Positions 3,031-61,870 of a DNA stretch of 64,000 nucleotides are shown one piece after another. The number at the start of each line of letters is the position of its first letter. The stretch's first letter is position 1. The stretch is from IMG/VR virus record IMGVR_UViG_3300045988_132833; one strand, written 5' to 3'. The stretch is from a virus. Made by a program: the position numbers and the translations under genes. The notes under the pieces were generated by a model. That model saw only the letters and a program-made list of their open reading frames with translations. It searched no databases and was not told the origin of the DNA.

Positions 3031-3447
3031 CTAGTCCGGCGTCTGCGCAGAAGTTACCAAGTTCAGAGCAATGGATTCCATAATCTTCTCCTTTTCCCGA
3101 GCTTCTACAAAGTTATTAATCACCTTATAAGGGTCTTCGGTAATCTTATATGTAGTGCAACTCCAGTCTCCATAGATAGTAGACTCTGTAATATAATTGT
3201 GAATACCTAAAACCTCCATATTTTCCCCGCAATTGCACCTCGACCAGTCATCCTTTTCGTTATACTCTGCAAAATATTTCTCACAGGCTGCTTTATAAGC
3301 TAATTCATCTGGAGTTTTGTACTCTTTATAAGGCTTTCTATCTATACTTTCTGGAAGATTAAAGTCTGCTGGCTTCGGAGAAGGATAATTATTCTTCCTG
3401 ATTACATAGCATGGGTAAGTAATTATTATAGTTCCCTTAAATTTCAT
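3031..3447 (-). CDS. Hypothetical protein (Cys-rich)
   Basis: 138 aa ORF in the gene array; overlaps the neighbouring gene by 4 nt. Confidence 0.4.
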   Translation of the reverse strand: MKFKGTIIITYPCYVIRKNNYPSPKPADFNLPESIDRKPYKEYKTPDELAYKAACEKYFAEYNEKDDWSRCNCGENMEVLGIHNYITESTIYGDWSCTTYKITEDPYKVINNFVEAREKEKIMESIALNLVTSAQTPD

Positions 3448-4196
3448 ATTAATTTTTCAATATAATCCCTATCTTCTCCCTTAAAGATAGGGATTTCAGT
3501 GTCAATAAACCATGAATCTACTCCGTTTACTTCTTTCTTAATGCAGCAACTTCCCCTTTGTAAGTGTACTGGTAACTTATTCCAATCTGTTTGCTTCTCC
3601 TCAAGAAGTTTTTTCAGAATTTGATCTGTAGAAAGTCCCTGTAATTCTTTATGGGAAAAGTTAGCTCGTCCCACAGAATTTATGCTGTTTCTAATTGCAT
3701 CTTGCTGTCGCCATAAAATACAATTAGCTACTTCTTCTTTAGGTATATTAAAGCATCGAGAATCAAATAGTGCTCCCTTTACTGCAGCATCTACGTGGAT
3801 ATCTTCCAATGGAATACTTTTACTCCATATGATGTCTAGGAAGCCTCTATTAAATGCTAAAGTAGCTATTGATGCAGATACGCTACATACTTTTTGAATA
3901 TCATAATCAAACCAGGCAGCAGTTTCTAACTTCTTGTAGTCAGTTAAAACCAACGTAATTTCATCAGATTGTGTGTATCCTAGTACACAACCCTGAATCT
4001 CTTTACATAAAGTTAACATAGTTTGCTGCATAGCTTCAGTAAGAATATCGTCAAAAGGTTTCTTAAAACCTCTTGTAAAGGTATGGAAAGCTTTTCCGTC
4101 TAATCTTATAATTACTGGAGTTCTACGAAGGAGTTGAGTCTTGGCTCTATTCTCGTAGTTCTCTTTCATTCTATCTCCTAAATTATCTTTCTTCAT
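3444..4196 (-). CDS. Thg1-like protein (tRNA-His guanylyltransferase family 3'-5' nucleotidyltransferase)
   Basis: VIIRLDGKAFHTFT...KPFDD...GYTQSDEITLVL...FDSRCFNIP...WRQQD align with the Thg1 signature RLDGRNFHRF...KPND...AYGQSDEYSFVF...FDGRVVVYP...WRQAD. Confidence 0.85.
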   Translation of the reverse strand: MKKDNLGDRMKENYENRAKTQLLRRTPVIIRLDGKAFHTFTRGFKKPFDDILTEAMQQTMLTLCKEIQGCVLGYTQSDEITLVLTDYKKLETAAWFDYDIQKVCSVSASIATLAFNRGFLDIIWSKSIPLEDIHVDAAVKGALFDSRCFNIPKEEVANCILWRQQDAIRNSINSVGRANFSHKELQGLSTDQILKKLLEEKQTDWNKLPVHLQRGSCCIKKEVNGVDSWFIDTEIPIFKGEDRDYIEKLI

Positions 4197-33172: not shown

Positions 33173-33670
33173 TTAATGTAAGAAATCATAAACAGTTGGG
33201 TCTACTACAATTGTGCCATTAACTACACAGTAGTCATGGTCCTTGGTAAAATTATACATTCTAGTATCTCCAATGGACTTAAAGAATTTTGGAATAAATT
33301 CTAAACCCTTTATGGGTTCTCTCCTTATTTCACAAGTTGCTTTTAAGTTACCTTTTGAGATAATGTAATCAAATACCTTCTTATAAGTTCTAGCATAATA
33401 GACACAATGAGTTTTAGTCTCTTTGTTTAATGATAACTTATCAAAACCCTTATATTCAGATTTTGTAGAAAAAGTTAATGTACGAGAAGTTATCTCATTT
33501 GAGAAATCAATAACTTCCTTCAAATTATTCGGATTGATATGTCCATATTCTATTTTCATATCTATACAAGAATAGATATTTCCAGAATACTGAGATTTAC
33601 CCATCCCATAGCAATACCATGCGATAAACATACATGGAATGCTAATAAGCAATACTAACATCTTTTTCAT
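33173..33670 (-). CDS. Secreted/membrane-anchored protein
   Basis: N-terminal hydrophobic signal MKKMLVLLISIPCMFIAWYCYG; 165 aa. Confidence 0.45.
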   Translation of the reverse strand: MKKMLVLLISIPCMFIAWYCYGMGKSQYSGNIYSCIDMKIEYGHINPNNLKEVIDFSNEITSRTLTFSTKSEYKGFDKLSLNKETKTHCVYYARTYKKVFDYIISKGNLKATCEIRREPIKGLEFIPKFFKSIGDTRMYNFTKDHDYCVVNGTIVVDPTVYDFLH

Positions 33671-35713
33671 GCCTTATTTTCTCTTTCTTTTCTTATTATT
33701 TCAGAATATTTATTGTATACATTCCGCATACTATCTACCTTTTCGAGTGGGATATTATACTAATATCTCATTTTGTCAATATTATTTCCCAAATTCTTTC
33801 TAGTCACTCCTAATGTAACTGGAAGTCCTCTAGGAGAAAGTGCTGAATAGGATGCACCTTCATCTGGATCCCAAGCTGCTTCGTCAGTTAATACTACATT
33901 AAATCCATTCTTATTTCTAGACTAGGACATACTCATACCTCCATTAGAGTATTCAACTCTCTGTCCAGGATTAAGGAATTTTATAGGATTACTAAAATCT
34001 GCATATTTAGCTTCCCTGCCATGTGACCTATTATACACTTGGTAAACCCAAGGAGTTAATCCCTTCTAATCAGAGGCTATTGCCAGAGCAGCCAACTCTT
34101 GAATTTGATTATTGAAGTTATCTGACATATCTTTTTCGGTACGAGTTGTACTCTTTGAATCCAAACCAATTTTATTTCTCCACCCTTTATGAAGATCGTG
34201 AACATAAAAGTTAGTTGGTTCAAAGTTATAACCTGTAGTGACAAGCCCAGCTAAGCCCAAAGTACCTAATGCTCTATTCCTTCGAATTTTACTTGCCTCA
34301 TCCGAAATGAATGGCTTCATTGCTTCTTGCCTAACCTTTAGAAGGGCTAATTTATTTTCATCCCCTCCAAATTCTCTAGTGCCACTCTTGTAAACCTTAG
34401 TAGCTTTATCAGAGTTTTCCTACATCCATTTGAGTTGAGCCTTAGAAGCTGCACTCCTCATGGCTTTTGCATCCCTGATAGACTGCTTCTTCCCTTCTAA
34501 GTTGATTTCTCTCATCTTCTATGTAGGTCTCCAACTACCTGTCTACTGCAATATTTTCTACTTTGCAAGCTTGTTTAACTTCTTTTCAGCTGCAGCTTCA
34601 CCCGTAAAGATCCTCCCTAATCTATTTGAAGCTAACTTAGCCTTATTTACTAACTTACCAAACTAGAGAATTGCTCCTCTCTGTGCTTTATTAATTTGTT
34701 TCATTAGTATCCGAATTGCATCTTTCTCTAGTATATAGAGAATAAACTGTTAGGATTATATTGCTATGCCCAATTTGAAACAGTCTTATTGAAAGCATCC
34801 TAGGTTTGCTATCCCCACTTACCATCAGCATTTATTCCAAGTTTCTCTTGAAGTTGCTTGACAGCTTCCGGACTATTGTAACCAGCTTTAGCAGCACGAT
34901 AATCGAACACACTGTCATAGCCGCTATTATGAGCTTCCATAGTGTCATCAGCCGTACCTATAATTTGTCCAGTTTGTTTATTATATATATAACCATTGCT
35001 GCCTTGTAGGTACTGATCGGGAGTCAACCAATTTGTTCCATCGTAATAATTAGTATTTCCATACCTATCTATTCCGAATCCTTGCTGTTGATTTTCATAC
35101 TAACCAGTTTCCTGATTCCACTCCTGCCAACCATTGTTTGGGTTATACATATATTGCTATGGAGTTTCCTCTGCAGCACTAGGCTATTTAGAATTTCTTG
35201 GAATAACTAGATAAGCTCCAGTACCAAGACCACCTACGAGTCCAGTAGTTTTAAGAGTTCTTTTAATACCCTTATTCCTAACTTGTCTTAGGGCATCATT
35301 CGTAACCTGTCTCTTAGTATTATTGAAAGCTTCCTTAGCTTCCATACTTTTCTATGATGCAGTTATTGCACTTCTTTCAGCTTCATCTGTTTTTCGCGCA
35401 GCATCATTTACTCTCTTTACATTTCTTTTACTATTAGGCTACTTCCAATTTTTAGTACTGTTTAATAATTTACTTTCTGCTTGCTAAGCTTCTTTATATC
35501 TTTGAGCTGCAAGATTATGACTCATTTCAGCTCCTCTCTAACTATTTCTAGATGCAATTAATTCTGGAGAAGCTTGCCTAGCTCTAACGACAGCTCTTTC
35601 ACCTCCTCCAATTCGTCTCATCAGGTTTCCGAAGTAATCTGGTATCATCTAACCATGACCTTTTAACCAATTTACTCCCTCACCTAAGTATTGTGCTTTC
35701 TTTTTAATACTCA
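33668..35713 (-). CDS. Late/structural-region gene(s) densely interrupted by in-frame TAG codons (TAG likely read as sense)
   Basis: By-eye translation from the ATG at 35711-35713 gives MSIKKKAQYLGEGVNWLKGHG[TAG]MIPDYFGNLMRRIGGGERAVVRAR[Q]ASPELIASRNS[TAG]RGAEMSHNLAAQRYKEA[TAG]QAESKLLN... The first ~0.25 kb contains three TAGs and no TAA/TGA. Every ORF-track fragment in the block ends in TAG (34066, 34809, 36238). The terminal TGA overlaps the next gene start. Exact gene boundaries are uncertain. Confidence 0.5.
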
Positions 35714-35729
35714 TATTTAATTATTATTA

Positions 35730-36991
35730 GATAAATTTACCATATAACTGCTATGTGCATAAGGGTATAGTGCCATAGTAGGATCTGAAGCCATAAGCCC
35801 CTGAAATGCAGCTTTTCCTACATTTACAAATCTGCCGCCAATTCCTTCTGCTCCTCCTAGTCTCTTAGGGGCTAATGCCCTTCTTACAGAATTAAGTGCA
35901 CTTCCAGCCTAATAAAGGTTAGCAGCACCTGGTGTATGAGACATAATAGGTTTCCAACTGTTCTTCAGCGTAGTACCTACTCCATCTCTTACCATTCCAG
36001 AGACTCCAGTCTTAAGTCTAGAGACTCCACCCTTCATATCTTTAGTTCCAAGGATAGCCATAGCAAAGTTGGCATCATCGTTAATATTTCTTCTCTACTA
36101 TTCGTCTAGTCCAGTCCAGGCAAAGTTCTAATCAGCAAATCCTTTATTTCTAGGATCATCTGGCAATATGCCTTCTTCTCCTGGAGTTAAATAACTTCTG
36201 ACAGAGTTAACATCTTTACCTAGATCTAGATATTGTCCTAGATTACCAGCTTCTCTTTCAACCTTCTATGGTAGCAAGAGCTGTAAGGCAGTTCCAATAG
36301 TTCCTCCAAGAACAGCATTTCCAGTTCTAGAGATATCTCCAAGAGTATCATTGAATCGTACCAAAGCACCTGTGTTTCGTTTTGGTCCCAACACACTCTG
36401 AGGAACATTATCGTACATTTCACCTCTTCTGGCATATCCCTTTTTCCAAATATCAGGAATTGATTTAAAGGAATCAATGAAGTTTTTTGCTGCACTATCC
36501 CAGTTGCCTTCCCAAGCACCTTTCTTGAAAGGATTTAGATCACTCCAACTAAATTCATCAGGATCCTAAGCAGAAGTCTATGATTTCTGTCGTGCTATAT
36601 AAGCCTTCATAGCTTTATTCTTTGTATCTTGATTTAGATAGGTATCTTTATTATTGAAAGGGTTTCTCTGTGTATAGCCAGTTGCTGTTTTTCTAGCTCC
36701 TGCTGCCTTTGCATTCTCCTCTATTCTAGAAGCTGCTTCATCCCATGTAGCAGTTTTCCCTTGCTTAGAAGATTTGACATCATTAAAACGCCAACGTCCA
36801 TTCTAGAATATGTTTCCATTTCTAGTATTCATTGAGGTTCTATTGGCAACTTCCCTTCCATATTTTCCTGCTAAATATCTCCAAGCAGCACCAGAAATGG
36901 GCTACCCTTTCTAGGCAATCTTGTTGCCGTTTACATCTCGGTAATATCCATCTTTACCAAGCCACAATTTACTCATATTAAAATCAGCCAT
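35730..36991 (-). CDS. Late/structural-region gene interrupted by in-frame TAG codons
   Basis: ATG at 36989-36991 preceded by an A11 leader; translation MADFNMSKLWLGKDGYYRDVNGNKIA[TAG]KG[TAG]PISGAAWRY... continues to about 35730 with only TAG stops in frame. Confidence 0.45.
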
Positions 36992-37027
36992 TTTCTTCTT
37001 TTTTTTTTTGTTTACAGGAACAGGTAG

Positions 37028-37106
37028 TACCTCCTAGTGGATTCGAACCACTGACAGTTTCACTAATATAGACTTTGTTAAACTTCTACCACTGATATAA
37101 GGAGGT
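37028..37106 (-). tRNA. tRNA-like gene with a candidate CUA anticodon (putative amber suppressor), non-canonical fold
   Basis: Perfect 7-bp acceptor ACCTCCT/AGGAGGT, T-arm AGTGG-TTCGAAT-CCACT, D-loop AGTGGTAGA; anticodon arm ACAAA-GTCTATA-TTAGT (U33 then CTA) stacked on a further 5-bp stem AGTTT/AAACT; the D-stem is poorly paired; 79 nt. Confidence 0.4.
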
Positions 37107-37286
37107 AACCTAGTTAGTTATACTCCAACTAAAAATGAGTTTAGGTTATTTTCACTGGTTTTATTATAACATTCCATTGTCCCAGCACCTATCGTACGTT
37201 CTTTCTCTTTCTAACCCAAATGATTAATTTTAAGGTAATTTACGATATTTAAACGAGTCAGTGGGAGATGTTTGTTACCTAAAGTT

Positions 37287-38300
37287 TTACTTAATAGTAA
37301 CTATTGCTACACGACCACTAGTAGTGTCAGTAACACCAGTTCCAATACAATTCTCTACGATTACACCATTTCCAGTTAAGAATTTGGAAACAGTTTTTGC
37401 ACGTTTCTCCGACAACTTCTGATTGTAATTAGAGGAACCTTCTGGAGATGCAGAACCAATAATACTTACCTTAGAACCAGATGGAATCTTAGATAATTCA
37501 GACATCGCGGTTCCAGTAAGTTTTGCAGAATTTTGTGCAAAGAAAATCACTGTGTTACCAACTGTATTAGTAACAACTTCGGTCTTAATGACTTCCTTTA
37601 CAATTTCTGTAGGTTTCTTTGCTAAATCCTTCTTAAGAGAATTAATTTCATTGTTCATTGATGCAATGTCATACGCCTTAAAGCTTCTTGTACCATTAGA
37701 AGTCTTAAAGTGATATACCCATCCAATTAAGACACCAAGCTGAGCATAATTCTTATTGAACTCTACGTGACCTGTCTTGTTCAGATTCCAGTATACTGCA
37801 GGATTAACTATAATCGAGTGAGCCTTCTCCTTACCTAGATTGAATGACAATACCGCTCCAGTTTTAGAGGTAATATAGTTACAGTGTCCTGTCCAACTAT
37901 GCAGCCAGCCAATACCAGTCTCAGTGCTTACTTCAAACCTCCTAGGGGTTCCATTATATCCGCACAGCAGGTTAGAGAAGTTAACAACTCCGTTCAATCC
38001 AGTATTAATAGATTTTACTACAGTAGAAGCACTACCGTAGTGATTATCGCCAAAGGAAGCCAGTCCTTCAACATTAAACCCAAATACAGGAGTAAAGTCC
38101 TTCTGCAACTTAATACCAGCAACTCCATTTACTGGAAATACTGAGTTAAAGTCCAGAGGAGTAGTTGCTCCACCTATAACACTAATAGAAGTGTTATCAA
38201 GGATTTTAGATTCTTCATACGCTGTTTGCGAGTAGGTAAAACTACACAGAGTAAACAGCAAACTCATGATGAAAATAAATTTCTTCATAAAATTTTTCAT
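37287..38300 (-). CDS. OmpA-family protein with signal peptide
   Basis: N-terminal signal MKKFIFIMSLLFTLCSFTYSQ; C-terminal OmpA-like domain SASPEGSSNYNQKLSEKRAKTVSKFL. Confidence 0.55.
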   Translation of the reverse strand: MKNFMKKFIFIMSLLFTLCSFTYSQTAYEESKILDNTSISVIGGATTPLDFNSVFPVNGVAGIKLQKDFTPVFGFNVEGLASFGDNHYGSASTVVKSINTGLNGVVNFSNLLCGYNGTPRRFEVSTETGIGWLHSWTGHCNYITSKTGAVLSFNLGKEKAHSIIVNPAVYWNLNKTGHVEFNKNYAQLGVLIGWVYHFKTSNGTRSFKAYDIASMNNEINSLKKDLAKKPTEIVKEVIKTEVVTNTVGNTVIFFAQNSAKLTGTAMSELSKIPSGSKVSIIGSASPEGSSNYNQKLSEKRAKTVSKFLTGNGVIVENCIGTGVTDTTSGRVAIVTIK

Positions 38301-41547: not shown

Positions 41548-42129
41548 CTATGCCATCCATCTCCAATCACAGTTTGTACCACCATAACTAACCTCAAACA
41601 GAAGCTTTCCAAATTGCTTAGAAATGTACAGGGCGGCTTTCTTTGAACCAACCGACCGGAAGCCGATATTCGCCCAGGAGTCAGACACGCCGAAAAACGA
41701 GTAGAAGGCACCGAGACCCGCATACGCGCCGGTATCAGCGTAACCGCCCACGACATCGAACTCTTCTCCTTCTGATTTGATTCGTCCTACAACGATGTCA
41801 CCGCAACAATTCTTAAGCTTTCCAGGTCTACAGAACTCAATAGTAGGAAACCAACGTTCTCCAGTGGTAAGATGCCTCTGTTCATTATAGGTTACAGCTG
41901 CAACTACTGCTCTGTAAGCAGCTATCTTCCACTCAAATGAGTCCTTAGGAAGTCTAGACAGTGAGTCCAGAATATCCTCACAGATCCTCTTGTCTGCGAG
42001 AAATTGAGCAGCGTCCTCGATAGTTTTGATACTTTCCATGGTATCTACATCTTCGAAGACAACACGACCATCCTTCCAAATGGCTTTTTTACCATCTGGA
42101 ACTTCAATTTCTAATACCTGTTTTGCCAT
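41548..42129 (-). CDS. Hypothetical protein
   Basis: 193 aa ORF. Confidence 0.4.
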   Translation of the reverse strand: MAKQVLEIEVPDGKKAIWKDGRVVFEDVDTMESIKTIEDAAQFLADKRICEDILDSLSRLPKDSFEWKIAAYRAVVAAVTYNEQRHLTTGERWFPTIEFCRPGKLKNCCGDIVVGRIKSEGEEFDVVGGYADTGAYAGLGAFYSFFGVSDSWANIGFRSVGSKKAALYISKQFGKLLFEVSYGGTNCDWRWMA

Positions 42130-49270: not shown

Positions 49271-49470
49271 TTAAAACAGAATACCTTTTAGAAATTAATC
49301 ACAATAATTCTTGATAAAATTGCTGTTAGTATTCTTATTCAAACAAAATGGATTCAAAACAAAAACGGAATGCTACTAGAAATGTTCAAGATTAAAAGTC
49401 TTGTATTATAGTCTAAGTTTGCTGTGTGCATTCCTATAACAATCTTCTAAATATTTTTTTTTTAGACAAT

Positions 49471-49600
49471 TAGAGTTACCCAGAGTACGCCACGTGGAGG
49501 CTTGTCTATGTACTCCTGGAGATGAGGGGAGTCGAACCCCTGTCTTACATATTTGCATCAAAGCATTCTTACAGCATAGGTTTTAAAGACTATCCTTGTC
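49471..49600 (-). pseudogene. Degenerate tRNA-like element plus a duplicated 3'-flank motif
   Basis: T-arm AGGGG-TTCGACT-CCCCT is present but no 5' acceptor partner or anticodon arm folds. The 49471-49520 segment (ATTAGAGTTACCC[AG][AG]AGTA..CCACG.GGAGG) repeats at 51231-51282, where it flanks an intact tRNA-Pro. Confidence 0.35.
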
Positions 49601-49885
49601 TTTTAGGGTTGACAGGATTGATATACTGTTAACTTCCACCACTCTGTTCCTGAAGTGTACAGAGAACTTATAGAATTGTCAATGGCGCACCTTTCTGTTC
49701 CTAAGCAAGTGCTGCTCGGCTTATTAGGCAGCAGCCTGATAAGCAGGAGTCATATTAATAACTCTAGCATTTATTGTTTTGTTGTCTTTCCAACTGTCTT
49801 TGCTGTGCTTCTTATCTCCTATGCAATCAAAACCAAACATCCCCATAGTAAGCAGTTTCAGGTCATGCTTAGGACTTTCTTTCAC

Positions 49886-50407
49886 TTATACCATTTCTTT
49901 TAATAGTCCAGTATAGTTTGGATGACTAGCATATCCAATTCGATTTAGAAAGGCGTAATAACTACCTCCACTATATCTATTAGATATACATTTCTTATAA
50001 TCCTCTACACATTCTGTCCAATGGGAATATCGTCTATAACGATTCCCCTTCTTAAGTCCAAAGATATTCTGATGAGTACGAACTAAGTCGGACTTAAAAT
50101 TACCTGTCTCAAGCTTGGCTTGAGCAAGTACAATATTTGCGTGAGGTATATTGTTCTTAATAAGCTCAGACCTTAAATTAGTCTCATTAAGAACTTTTGG
50201 TTTAGCAACTGGTTTCACCTGAGCAACTTTAACATTTTTGTCCTTAGATGTAACCTTTGCTGAATCCTTTACCATTTCAATACGGATAGTATTTTCAGAT
50301 GGTTTAGGAGAACTTTTTGGCACTGAAATTATGGTGATTAAAGCGCCAAGGATTAAACCTATCATTAGGTAAAATCCATTTTGATAAATCTGTTGTTTCA
50401 TAATCAT
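49886..50407 (-). CDS. Membrane-anchored glucosaminidase-family peptidoglycan hydrolase (endolysin candidate)
   Basis: N-terminal TM MIGLILGALITIISV; AQAKLETGNFKS...NIFGLK resembles the glucosaminidase motif A..A.LE.GWG.S...N.FGIK. Confidence 0.55.
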   Translation of the reverse strand: MIMKQQIYQNGFYLMIGLILGALITIISVPKSSPKPSENTIRIEMVKDSAKVTSKDKNVKVAQVKPVAKPKVLNETNLRSELIKNNIPHANIVLAQAKLETGNFKSDLVRTHQNIFGLKKGNRYRRYSHWTECVEDYKKCISNRYSGGSYYAFLNRIGYASHPNYTGLLKEMV

Positions 50408-50461
50408 AGTTTTTAATTAATAAATACTAATCTAAAACAGGAATCTATTCTTTCATGGCTG

Positions 50462-50520
50462 CTGCTCTAAACCAGCTGAGCTACCTTTGAGGATTGGATT
50501 CGAACCAATGACTTGCGGCT
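50462..50520 (-). other. Juxtaposed tRNA fragments (a 3' half followed directly by a 5' half)
   Basis: Minus sense: ...ATTGG-TTCGAAT-CCAAT-CCTCAAAG then GGTAGCTCAGCTGGTTTAGAGCAGC (canonical acceptor/D-arm start) with no matching partner halves nearby. Confidence 0.3.
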
Positions 50521-51274
50521 TTTACAAGAATACATTTGCTGTTAGATTCCTTCTTATAATTTATTCTGGTAAATTACCATATTCCCATTTATATTTAAAG
50601 GCAGTTTTAGCCTTGTGCTTGCAGCAATTTGTAATTTTACTCGTTGCTGTTCTATTTTTTGCTAATCCATGCTCTACCAACCAATCCATTGCGTCCTAAA
50701 TGCTCTGGAATGTCTAGATGTAATTCCCAGCAAGATCATACTAAAGAACAACTTTAGAATCTCCCTTCCTTATTTTAATGGAATTTGTTTTTGCTACTTT
50801 ATATACAATATCAGAACAACATCCAACTTTATTACAAACCTGAGCAGAACTATACCCCAATTTAAGGAGATCAACTATTTCACGATAATCATAGAGTATC
50901 TTTCCATCTCCACCACAGGTAGCATTGTATCCTCCAGAGCCAAAGGTTTGCAACTCCTTGATCCAAAAGATCTCTCTTTGCGAGAGGACATCCTAAGATA
51001 TTCCATCTTCTAGTATGTCTAGTCGAAAGTTTTCTATCCCATACTTATTCATTGCATCATAAAGAGGTCGCTTATTACATCTTTTCTTCTAGCTATCTAC
51101 ACAGTGTTCCTTGAATCTTTCCTCAGGATTTTTAGTAGTTTTTCCTATATACCTTTTGTTATTTAATAAGTTTGTAATGCAATAAATATATCCCATATTA
51201 CTTTTTTTTTTCTTTATTATAAGCTATTAGAGTTACCCGAAGTATACCACGCGGAGGTTGCTTACACATACTTC

Positions 51275-57192: not shown

Positions 57193-57360
57193 AATTATTG
57201 GTAGACAAAATTAAAAAATGATATTTTTGTCTACCTTAAAGTCTGTCGGGTCTACCATTCCCCCATAGAGCCATCCTTTCTTAAAGAAGTTTGTATATCA
57301 TAATTATTATTTTCAAAATAGTCCTGTACGATTTGAGCATTGTTAAGAGGCTTGACAGGA

Positions 57361-58609: not shown

Positions 58610-58698
58610 TGGTGTTCCCTATGGGACTAGAACCCATGACCCTCGGATTAAAAGTCCGATGCTCTCTAGCCTTGCGGAACCAACTGAGCTAAGGGAAC
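58610..58698 (-). tRNA. tRNA-Lys (anticodon TTT) with an enlarged D-loop; CCA encoded
   Basis: Acceptor GTTCCCT/AGGGAAC followed by ACCA, anticodon arm TCGGA-CTTTTAA-TCCGA, T-arm ATGGG-TTCTAGT-CCCAT; D-arm GCTC...GAGC encloses about 21 nt. Confidence 0.6.
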
Positions 58699-61104: not shown

Positions 61105-61175
61105 TAGCCCATGAAGGAGTCGAACCTTCCTCTTAAAATAGAGAGTTTTAAGTTCTACCGCTAAACTAATGGGCC
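61105..61175 (-). tRNA. tRNA-Glu (anticodon CTC), probable
   Basis: Acceptor GGCCCAT/ATGGGCT, D-arm GTTT-AGCGGTA-GAAC, anticodon arm TAAAA-CTCTCTA-TTTTA, T-arm GAAGG-TTCGACT-CCTTC. Confidence 0.5.
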
Positions 61176-61200
61176 TTATCTAAACAAAATTCTTTTAAGT

Positions 61201-61870
61201 CTCTTTTAGTACTAGGCAGACCATATCTCATACACCATTTTCTAACAGCATTATCAGATACTCCATACTTTTGCCCAATCTTAATAAAGGAAGTAGTTAG
61301 AATTAGTTTTTCTAATTCTTCTTTACTCGGTTTATTTTCGATTCTATCCTGGGCATAGTGTTTTGGGGCGCATTTCCTGCAATAAGCGGATCGTACATTT
61401 ATTTCTATTCCGCAGTCTCTACAATAATTTTTTGCCTTCTCATGTCTACTTCCCCAGTTATCTGTCTGTGAGTGACAGTTAGGACAAAGTACCTATAGAT
61501 TTTCCAATCTATTATCGTAGTGATTTCCATTAATGTGGTGTAGTTGATAAGTAATAGGATTATCTAACCAATATCCATTCTTACAAGGACATTTAGGATT
61601 TTCACATTCATTCCTTTTAAGACCTTCAGATATAAGTCTTTGTAGAAGCTTACTAGACTGATAATTACTACCATTAACTAATATATCTTCTAATGGAATT
61701 AACTTTTTAGAAGATTTATCTGGCAGAAAGTGATAATCTATTTGATGTAGATCAAGTTCCTGTTTTAATAGTTTCATGGAAGCTCCAGACACAGCCTTTC
61801 CCTATCTTCTAATAATGTCTGATAGACTTGAAGAGGTCTTTACAAGATTTTGTAATTCGTCTTTATTCAT
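61201..61870 (-). CDS. HNH homing endonuclease paralog with at least two in-frame TAG codons
   Basis: MNKDELQNLVKTSSSLSDIIRR[TAG]GKAVSGAS...HHINGNHYDNRLENL[TAG]VLCPNCHSQTDN...; the TAG occupies the position of Arg in the paralog motif NRIENLRMLCPNCHSQT at 56674..57192. Confidence 0.5.

Follow-up and report, generated by a model that had tools for sequence, protein, structure and literature searches.

TAG-rich genes in a large gut phage in which the amber codon is very probably decoded as glutamine

Several groups of gut phages are known to read the amber codon TAG as glutamine (genetic code 15), namely the Lak megaphages, crAss-like phages and the clades called Jade, Sapphire, Agate and Topaz (Ivanova 2014; Devoto 2019; Yutin 2021; Borges 2021/22; Peters 2022). 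Homing endonucleases are among the genes already reported to be recoded in published phages of this kind, proteomic data have proved the presence of glutamine in peptides spanning TAG sites (Peters 2022), and stop-codon recoding has been proposed to time lysis (Borges et al. 2021/22). In addition, the human-gut phage phAss-1 ('Phassvirus'), with a genome of 136 kb, uses TAG as glutamine in 28% of its open reading frames (ORFs; Int J Mol Sci 2023, PMC10607447). Here, we analyzed a stretch of 64,000 nucleotides (nt) of viral DNA, the IMG/VR record IMGVR_UViG_3300045988_132833 (hereafter the window), in which a block of three genes on the minus strand, designated A, B and C (33667..36991), is rich in in-frame TAG codons. 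A preliminary description of this DNA, made from its letters, had ascribed the block to amber reassignment as in crAss-like and Lak phages. The comparison was apt, as the block is a further case of the TAG-to-glutamine recoding already described in gut phages, the same phenomenon as in Borges et al., and we consider it very probable that this gut phage decodes TAG as glutamine in selected genes.

Under the standard code, the ORFs between 33670 and 37287 were fragments of no more than 93 residues, and, as had been described, the short fragments 34066..34320, 34809..35027 and 36238..36519 end in TAG. Sorting the stops of the minus strand by frame revealed three successive stretches that contain TAG as their only stop, each in a different frame (Table 1). 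Read from the ATGs supported by homologues, A, B and C together comprise 1105 codons with 30 in-frame TAGs, the first of which stands at codon 27 in A, 22 in B and 14 in C; the interspersed TAA and TGA stops that the preliminary description associated with a non-coding or decayed region are absent from all three frames. The frame that it had followed from an ATG at 35711-35713 for 0.25 kb across three TAGs is indeed a TAG-only run, with its ATG at 35712-35714 and a length of 1.0 kb, over which 12 TAGs occur. The start that it gave for the upstream unit was correct (36989-36991), and gene A behaves in the same way with its 10 TAGs. The genes are tightly packed: the TAA of A is followed after 2 nt by the ATG of B, B and C overlap in TAATG, and the TGA of C overlaps the ATG of the next gene, which encodes a protein of 165 residues, in the ATGA junction already pointed out.

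To evaluate these frames against chance, we took 50 confident genes from the rest of the window and used the stop frequencies at their off-frame positions, where TAG accounts for 23% of stops and TAA and TGA together for 0.078 per codon. The probability of encountering no TAA or TGA was 1e-15, 2e-12 and 8e-13 for A, B and C, respectively, and the probability that 30 of 30 stops are TAG was approximately 9e-20. In the 50 genes themselves (13,883 codons), in-frame TAG did not occur once. A codon-usage score trained on the long ordinary genes of the window was 0.25-0.31 in the TAG frame of the block, which matches normal genes, and negative in the other two frames. Coding potential, stop frequencies and homologues of the merged products had all been named in the preliminary description as checks on reassignment, and all three spoke for it; full-length matches were found for each of the three proteins. 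A, B and C are genuine genes that encode conserved proteins.

The homologues of A, B and C in the protein database carry Q at the TAG sites. These entries are gene calls made with a table in which TAG is a sense codon, and the loci do not yield them under the standard code; existing gene callers already handle such calls for this clade. The proteins are conserved over their full length at 32-98% identity on hundreds of contigs, in clusters of up to several hundred members, and relatives at 54-98% identity keep 5-21 TAGs per gene in the block, which is occupied by recoded genes even in relatives with other genes there. In-frame TAGs number 5-10 in gene A of the relatives, 7-15 in gene B, 4-21 in C-like genes and 6 in an extra gene of 207 residues, while flanking genes have none. 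Among four near-identical genomes, TAG in gene A swaps with CAG at two columns, with CAA at two, and with GAG and AAG at one each. When codon partners were counted over 139 TAG columns in three alignments of 13-15 relatives, CAA (44 columns) and CAG (34) were the commonest, giving 78 glutamine cases; K (54), E (31), R and N came next, and Tyr (21) and Trp (7) were rare. CAA can be reached from TAG only by two mutations, and its place as the commonest partner is therefore not explained by mutational proximity. Within A-C, TAG makes up 30 of the 69 glutamine-equivalent codons (43%). Because CAA and CAG are the codons that relatives most often have at TAG columns, TAG in the block evidently stands for glutamine (code 15), as judged from these alignments. 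As a separate observation, the closest relative (L003) lacks about 570 nt corresponding to 34596..35165 of the window, and its B and C are fused into a single gene of 491 codons with 15 TAGs, which suggests recombination between these two similarly built genes.

Sense TAG, which the preliminary description had noted at 33.7-37.0 kb, is found in other parts of the window as well. Three further genes of the window contain in-frame TAGs (Table 1). In the GIY-YIG homing-endonuclease gene, the Pfam match (3.6e-13) spans two of them; the HNH endonuclease-like gene has a 3' end that overlaps a tRNA-Glu, and its true stop is uncertain; the third is a gene of 189 codons. The genes for replication and nucleotide metabolism and those of the tRNA region are TAG-free.

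A decoder was found in relatives, in the form of a canonical suppressor tRNA with anticodon CUA, tRNA(CUA). Allele 1 is present in L012, L014, L015 and L069 (Rfam 55-59 bits for L012 and L015) and allele 2 in L071 and L072 (51-53 bits). Both share U1 and the D arm with the phage tRNA-Gln(UUG) and are otherwise quite different from each other; a phage tRNA with anticodon CUA and a Gln-like U1 and D arm, shown in relatives only, is thus the predicted decoder. The gene occupies a syntenic site in five related contigs, approximately 4 kb beyond the high end of the window. On contig 120048, whose start corresponds to the high end of the window, it lies 3.9 kb from the contig end, and the tRNA(CUA) of the present genome is therefore expected about 4 kb past coordinate 64000. 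In addition, L012, L014 and L015 contain a second, denser recoded block past the high end of the window, with 19, 20, 9 and 14 TAGs per gene (up to 6% of codons), in which one gene has an NlpC/P60-like motif. This block is followed by a TAG-free gene and then by the canonical tRNA(CUA). The genome therefore has several recoded modules.

Table 1. Positions of the genes, RNA elements and stop codons discussed in the text, in the window and in related contigs.
Feature	Sequence	Coordinates	Strand	Remarks
Gene A	window	35717..36991	-	424 codons, 10 in-frame TAG, TAA stop
Gene B	window	34704..35714	-	336 codons, 12 in-frame TAG, TAA stop
Gene C	window	33667..34704	-	345 codons, 8 in-frame TAG, TGA stop
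TAG-only stretch	window	37117->35719	-	11 TAG, closed by TAA
TAG-only stretch	window	35720->34706	-	12 TAG, closed by TAA
TAG-only stretch	window	34749->33669	-	8 TAG, closed by TGA
165-aa gene	window	33173..33670	-	TAG-free; N-terminal hydrophobic signal-like segment; start-stop overlap with C; no family match
OmpA-family protein	window	37287..38300	-	upstream neighbour; signal peptide; 0 TAG
tRNA-like element	window	37027..37106	-	ARAGORN 'tRNA-Pyl (cta)'; 35 nt upstream of the ATG of A
Structured RNA, ~142 nt	window	37141..37282	-	between OmpA-like gene and tRNA-like element; non-coding
GIY-YIG + NUMOD1 homing-endonuclease gene	window	50561..51196	-	5 in-frame TAG
HNH endonuclease-like gene	window	~61148..61870	-	2-3 in-frame TAG, one inside HNH motif
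189-codon gene	window	16846..17415	-	2 in-frame TAG, good coding score, no family match
TAG stops of six ordinary genes	window	56674, 41548, 27213, 17388, 12214, 3031
tmRNA	window	49514..49844	-
Glucosaminidase-domain protein	window	49886..50407	-	TAG-free
Weak YrlA match	window	50434..50542	-	31 bits, below threshold
Weak HDV-ribozyme-like matches	window	49453..49516 and 51196..51274		beside tRNAs
abiF RNA motif	window	57322..57359	-	50 bits
tRNA-Lys(UUU)	window	58610..58698	-	D-loop insertion
Thg1-like tRNA-His guanylyltransferase gene	window	3444..4196	-	adjoins ATP-dependent ligase
Fused B-C gene	L003	9272..10744		491 codons, 15 TAG
Second recoded block	L015	234..4541
tRNA(CUA), allele 1	L015	5100..5174
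tRNA(CUA), allele 2	L071	6480..6551
UUA or UCA tRNA	L002	6356..6440
UUA or UCA tRNA	L034	7115..7187

Each of the three proteins has a single central Gly-rich, weakly hydrophobic segment, a putative membrane helix. In A, it accompanies a conserved N-terminal domain (residues 1-130). B begins with a helical hairpin that is variable among relatives, continues with the Gly-rich segment, possibly transmembrane, and ends in a strongly conserved domain with the LG..DGKWG..T..A motif of PG_binding_1, just below the Pfam cut-off. The C-terminal half of C is replaced by unrelated domains in relatives. In relatives, the gene downstream of the block is TAG-free and encodes a peptidoglycan-acting enzyme with a signal or lipoprotein peptide: a GH25 muramidase in L005 and L006 (GH25 1.7e-19), a protein with a YkuD_2 domain in L004 (5e-26) and an M10-like Zn-peptidase in L007; in L009, the neighbours are a lysozyme and a C92 peptidase. 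The window has the gene of the 165-residue protein at this position. The junction between the last recoded gene and the hydrolase gene is ATGA or TGATG in L005, L006 and L007. No terminator-like site was found between 38349 and 31586, and hence none between the OmpA-family gene and the block; the scan for sigma-70 promoters and terminators was uninformative, as promoter-like sites were fewer than in shuffled sequences. Because the block encodes putative membrane proteins rich in Gly, of which one has a peptidoglycan-binding-like domain, and because a TAG-free secreted peptidoglycan hydrolase follows it in relatives, usually with a start-stop overlap, on balance we favour a lysis or cell-envelope operon. 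The preliminary description had called the block structural; this label found no support in PHROG or Pfam, which gave no structural match, and the context points more to lysis or the cell envelope.

If the block works in this way, host RF1 would halt translation at the first TAG of each gene early in infection, so that only short peptides would be made, and ribosomes would read through TAG once the suppressor tRNA had accumulated. Each protein would need 8-12 successive read-throughs (21 in one relative), and with a read-through probability p at each of n TAGs the yield of full-length protein would be about p^n, that is, 0.02-0.4% at p=0.5 and 28-43% at p=0.9. Output would therefore rise very steeply with the suppressor level, giving a steep, late switch, in keeping with the timing of lysis proposed by Borges et al. 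The TAG-free last gene would probably be translated by coupling, and hence be under the same control as A-C, since A, B, C and the downstream gene are packed start to stop.

Several observations weigh against this account. Six of the 50 ordinary TAG-free genes of the window end in TAG (Table 1), and TAG must therefore also act as a stop, at least early. Each of these stops is backed by an in-frame TAA or TGA 2-19 codons later, and the TAG-x-TAA at 41548 is conserved in all 10 related loci examined; TAG seems to be a stop in some genes and glutamine in others, and not to be fully reassigned. No tRNA(CUA) fitting the tRNA model lies within the 64-kb window, where the suppressor tRNA on which the preliminary description relied is thus missing (the tRNA(cta) call adjoining the block is a tRNA-like element), and decoding here rests on relatives. 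Neither a release factor nor an aminoacyl-tRNA synthetase was found among the window ORFs scanned. With regard to function, A, B, C and the 165-residue protein match no family of known function in Pfam, PHROGs or NCBIfam; the same three resources gave no holin or spanin family match, the block proteins of 336-424 residues show no clear transmembrane topology, and a search of PDB sequences with the same four proteins returned nothing usable. The hydrophobic segments are weak (Kyte-Doolittle values of 1.0-1.25), the structure models are poor (predicted local distance difference test, pLDDT, 51-63), fold searches gave generic helical matches only, and no peptidoglycan hydrolase was identified adjoining the block in the window itself.

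The shortness of the standard-code fragments (93 residues or fewer) and the lack of family matches might also be taken to indicate a stretch that has decayed or is non-coding, or genes that nonsense mutations have turned into pseudogenes. We give this reading virtually no credence: frames interrupted by TAG only have a chance probability of about 1e-12 to 1e-15 per ORF, the coding signal is specific to one frame, the full-length identity of 32-98% extends over hundreds of contigs, and TAG positions turn over to glutamine codons. Decay was accordingly refuted by the coding score, the stop statistics and the turnover at TAG columns. It is also extremely improbable that TAG stands for pyrrolysine (Pyl) or for another residue such as Glu, Trp or Tyr. 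ARAGORN labels every CUA tRNA 'Pyl', the anticodon stem of suppressor allele 1 is like that of tRNA-Trp, and the tRNA-like element resembles tRNA-Glu. However, the window ORFs scanned include no genes for Pyl synthesis or charging, the CUA tRNAs form an ordinary cloverleaf (Rfam 51-59 bits), and the element at 37027..37106 has a 7-nt D loop and a 9-nt variable region, whereas the pylT type has a short D loop, a 3-nt variable loop and an anticodon stem of 6 base pairs. The TAG columns hold 78 glutamine codons against 7 for W, 21 for Y and 31 for E, with CAA the commonest partner in spite of its two mutations from TAG. Moreover, tRNAs with a CUA anticodon are good substrates of GlnRS in bacteria. 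In E. coli, supE (a tRNA-Gln with anticodon CUA) and su7 (derived from tRNA-Trp and charged with Gln) insert glutamine at TAG in competition with RF1, and the phage tRNAs would resemble them in that glutamine enters at TAG through a CUA anticodon carried by a Gln-like or Trp-like body; supE and su7 are weak laboratory or host suppressors, whereas genes with 8-21 TAGs imply efficient read-through here. A reading that leaves the recoding unchanged and that we regard as possible, though rather unlikely, is that the products of the block are virion-associated or ejection proteins, which would pass through the cell envelope during infection. When 1.84 billion proteins were searched by profile and Pfam was then applied to the long matches, the outcome was a single TseH-like fusion, in which a remote homologue of the C-terminal half of A is joined to a TseH-like peptidoglycan-hydrolase domain; B has its peptidoglycan-binding-like motif, the other recoded block of the relatives has the NlpC/P60-like motif typical of tail lysins, and in published cases structural genes are, as a rule, recoded. 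On the other hand, the downstream hydrolases of relatives are TAG-free and have a signal or lipoprotein peptide, as would be expected of secreted endolysins but not of enzymes of the virion, the block is surrounded by genes for replication and metabolism, at a long distance from any capsid or tail gene that can be recognised in the window, and structural matches in PHROG and Pfam are lacking.

A further possibility concerns the decoder. The 80-nt element at 37027..37106 could be a working local amber suppressor that forms a 'code-change module' upstream of the operon. ARAGORN calls it a tRNA(cta), and CUA stands in a loop of 7 nt; both the acceptor stem and the T arm are perfect, its 7-nt D loop is canonical and contains GG, the first recoded gene begins 35 nt downstream of it, its loop GUCUAUA is similar to the CUCUCUA of the phage's tRNA-Glu, and a comparable layout has been published for Jade phages, in which a tRNA-type gene likewise stands directly upstream of recoded lysis-region genes and the genes upstream are in standard code. 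We nevertheless judge a local suppressor to be very improbable. The Rfam tRNA model RF00005 gave no match even at E<=10; 4 nt separate the D and anticodon stems (one base in a tRNA), and the anticodon stem has a mismatch. In the lineages L004/L021/L028, L006/L022 and L019/L023, the element has a 91-nt form that hides CUA within a long hairpin and has no anticodon loop, and ARAGORN calls it Asp or '???'. Because it is found in three diverged lineages, this form is probably ancestral, and the 80-nt form with CUA in a loop would then be the result of a recent 11-nt deletion. The lineage L007/L026 has the acceptor stem and T arm only, and the known variants (80, 91 and 74 nt) share no consistent fold in the middle part. 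Genomes that have the 80-nt form have not lost the canonical tRNA(CUA), in that contigs with this element carry the second tRNA(CUA) allele at the syntenic site. An exact-pattern scan had seemed to support replacement of the canonical suppressor by the 80-nt element in its lineage; this was refuted, as contigs 120048 and 073177 have both. The Jade-type module consists of a true suppressor tRNA together with TrpRS and RF1 and reassigns TGA to Trp, while here there is only a tRNA-like element and the codon is TAG; unlike in that module, the window ORFs scanned included neither a synthetase nor a release factor, and the true tRNA(CUA), as judged from relatives, lies about 30 kb away beside another recoded block.

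The 37027..37106 sequence is a conserved tRNA-like element and not a credible tRNA decoder. Among relatives, it always stands 35-40 nt upstream of gene A, and the 12 pairs of its acceptor stem and T arm are intact in 7 of 7 variants, including compensatory AT->GC and GC->AT changes. A covariance model of the element recovered only the known copies and ordinary tRNAs, among which it ranked the phage tRNA-Glu next. Upstream of it lies a structured RNA of about 142 nt (Table 1) that Lak megaphages and MT835539 share at approximately 84% identity, in unlike surroundings. Its core occurs on at least 36 IMG/VR phage contigs of 50-550 kb; on most of them, as in the tRNA arrays of Lak megaphages, it begins about 10 nt after a tRNA-Gln(UUG), and in one type a tRNA-Met then follows. 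Several of these loci carry suppressor tRNAs with anticodon CUA, UUA or UCA. Compensatory changes were seen in 7 of the 31 pairs of a five-helix consensus, compared with 2.8 +/- 1.2 in shuffled controls (0 of 500) and 0-2 in slid controls, for a structure derived from the same alignment as was tested and with only three sequence types in existence. Rfam offered no identity for it, and it is a candidate new phage small RNA. In the related genomes L006, L022 and L023, most of the element is missing. Taken together, the 142-nt RNA appears to head the recoded operon in this lineage, and the tRNA-like minihelix appears to do so across diverged relatives, with an anticodon arm that may be free to vary. 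That the two elements are parts of the code switch or of its timing is an improbable idea: if RNase P/Z processed the tRNA-like element, the mRNA of the recoded operon could be released or stabilised, and the 142-nt RNA could act on glutamine decoding or on termination. Among the carriers of the 142-nt element, tRNAs with UUA (ochre) or UCA (opal) anticodons were noted in L002, L034, L041, L057, L059, L060 and L062, and this group of phages therefore has suppressors of more than one stop codon.

Compared with published code-15 phages, the present phage shows the same restriction of in-frame TAG to some modules, with replication genes in standard code, the same glutamine at TAG sites, and a phage tRNA(CUA), here in relatives. 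Likewise, several recoded modules are distributed over a large genome, homing endonuclease genes are recoded, and putative transmembrane-type proteins, beside lysis enzymes in relatives, are strongly recoded. There are also differences. In the published clades, means of 26-71% of genes are recoded, whereas approximately 6 of 75 are in this 64-kb window; here, the peptidoglycan hydrolase of relatives is TAG-free and start-stop overlapped with the last recoded gene; and the clade, of about 175 kb, has no match in the GenBank phage collection searched. phAss-1 (PMC10607447) is similar in that it carries tRNA-Sup(CTA) genes and a large set of tRNAs and lacks a dedicated synthetase, and differs in its gene content and its 136-kb genome; no sequence similarity between it and the window was detected.

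The window and the common gut phage clade to which it belongs need to be annotated with TAG as glutamine, since several genes are otherwise lost under the standard code, among them those of the probable lysis or envelope operon and several homing endonucleases. The phage provides an independent and very clean example for the published idea that dangerous genes (lysis proteins, nucleases) are gated by a suppressor tRNA. Of particular interest are the very local and dense recoding within a region of replication and metabolism and the TAG-free hydrolase gene, which appears, from the arrangement of the genes, to be slaved to the recoded genes through the start-stop overlap. In addition, the tRNA-like element and the structured RNA linked to tRNA-Gln are leads for the many recoded phages whose only known mechanism is the tRNA.

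The window comes from a tailed gut phage of approximately 175 kb. Its genes lie on the minus strand throughout, and its GC content is about 36%. It encodes a DNA ligase, DnaB-like and SF2 helicases, NrdD, dUTPase and RNase H, as well as a Thg1-like enzyme, NAMPT and an amidoligase/GATase set, and its RNA genes comprise 20 tRNAs called by Rfam, a transfer-messenger RNA (tmRNA) and an abiF-type RNA. The replication and nucleotide-metabolism genes and the tRNA set therefore indicate a large phage as the source. Its close relatives, which share 92-98% of their DNA sequence with it, are contigs of 165-182 kb in IMG/VR and ENA. Searches of the GenBank phage collection (megablast, tblastn) returned no DNA or protein match beyond one non-coding stretch of 130 nt, and the clade is absent from the deposited phages of that collection.

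Some further features of the window were noted (Table 1). The phage tmRNA scored 60 bits in Rfam and was absent from the ARAGORN listing; adjoining it are a gene for a Glucosaminidase-domain protein and a match to YrlA (Y RNA-like). Weak matches resembling the hepatitis delta virus (HDV) ribozyme were found at two sites. The abiF RNA motif exceeds the Rfam gathering score of 37 and is also present in relatives L012 and L015. In the tRNA-Lys(UUU), ARAGORN reads a 4-base anticodon, and a Thg1-like tRNA-His guanylyltransferase gene adjoins that of the ligase.

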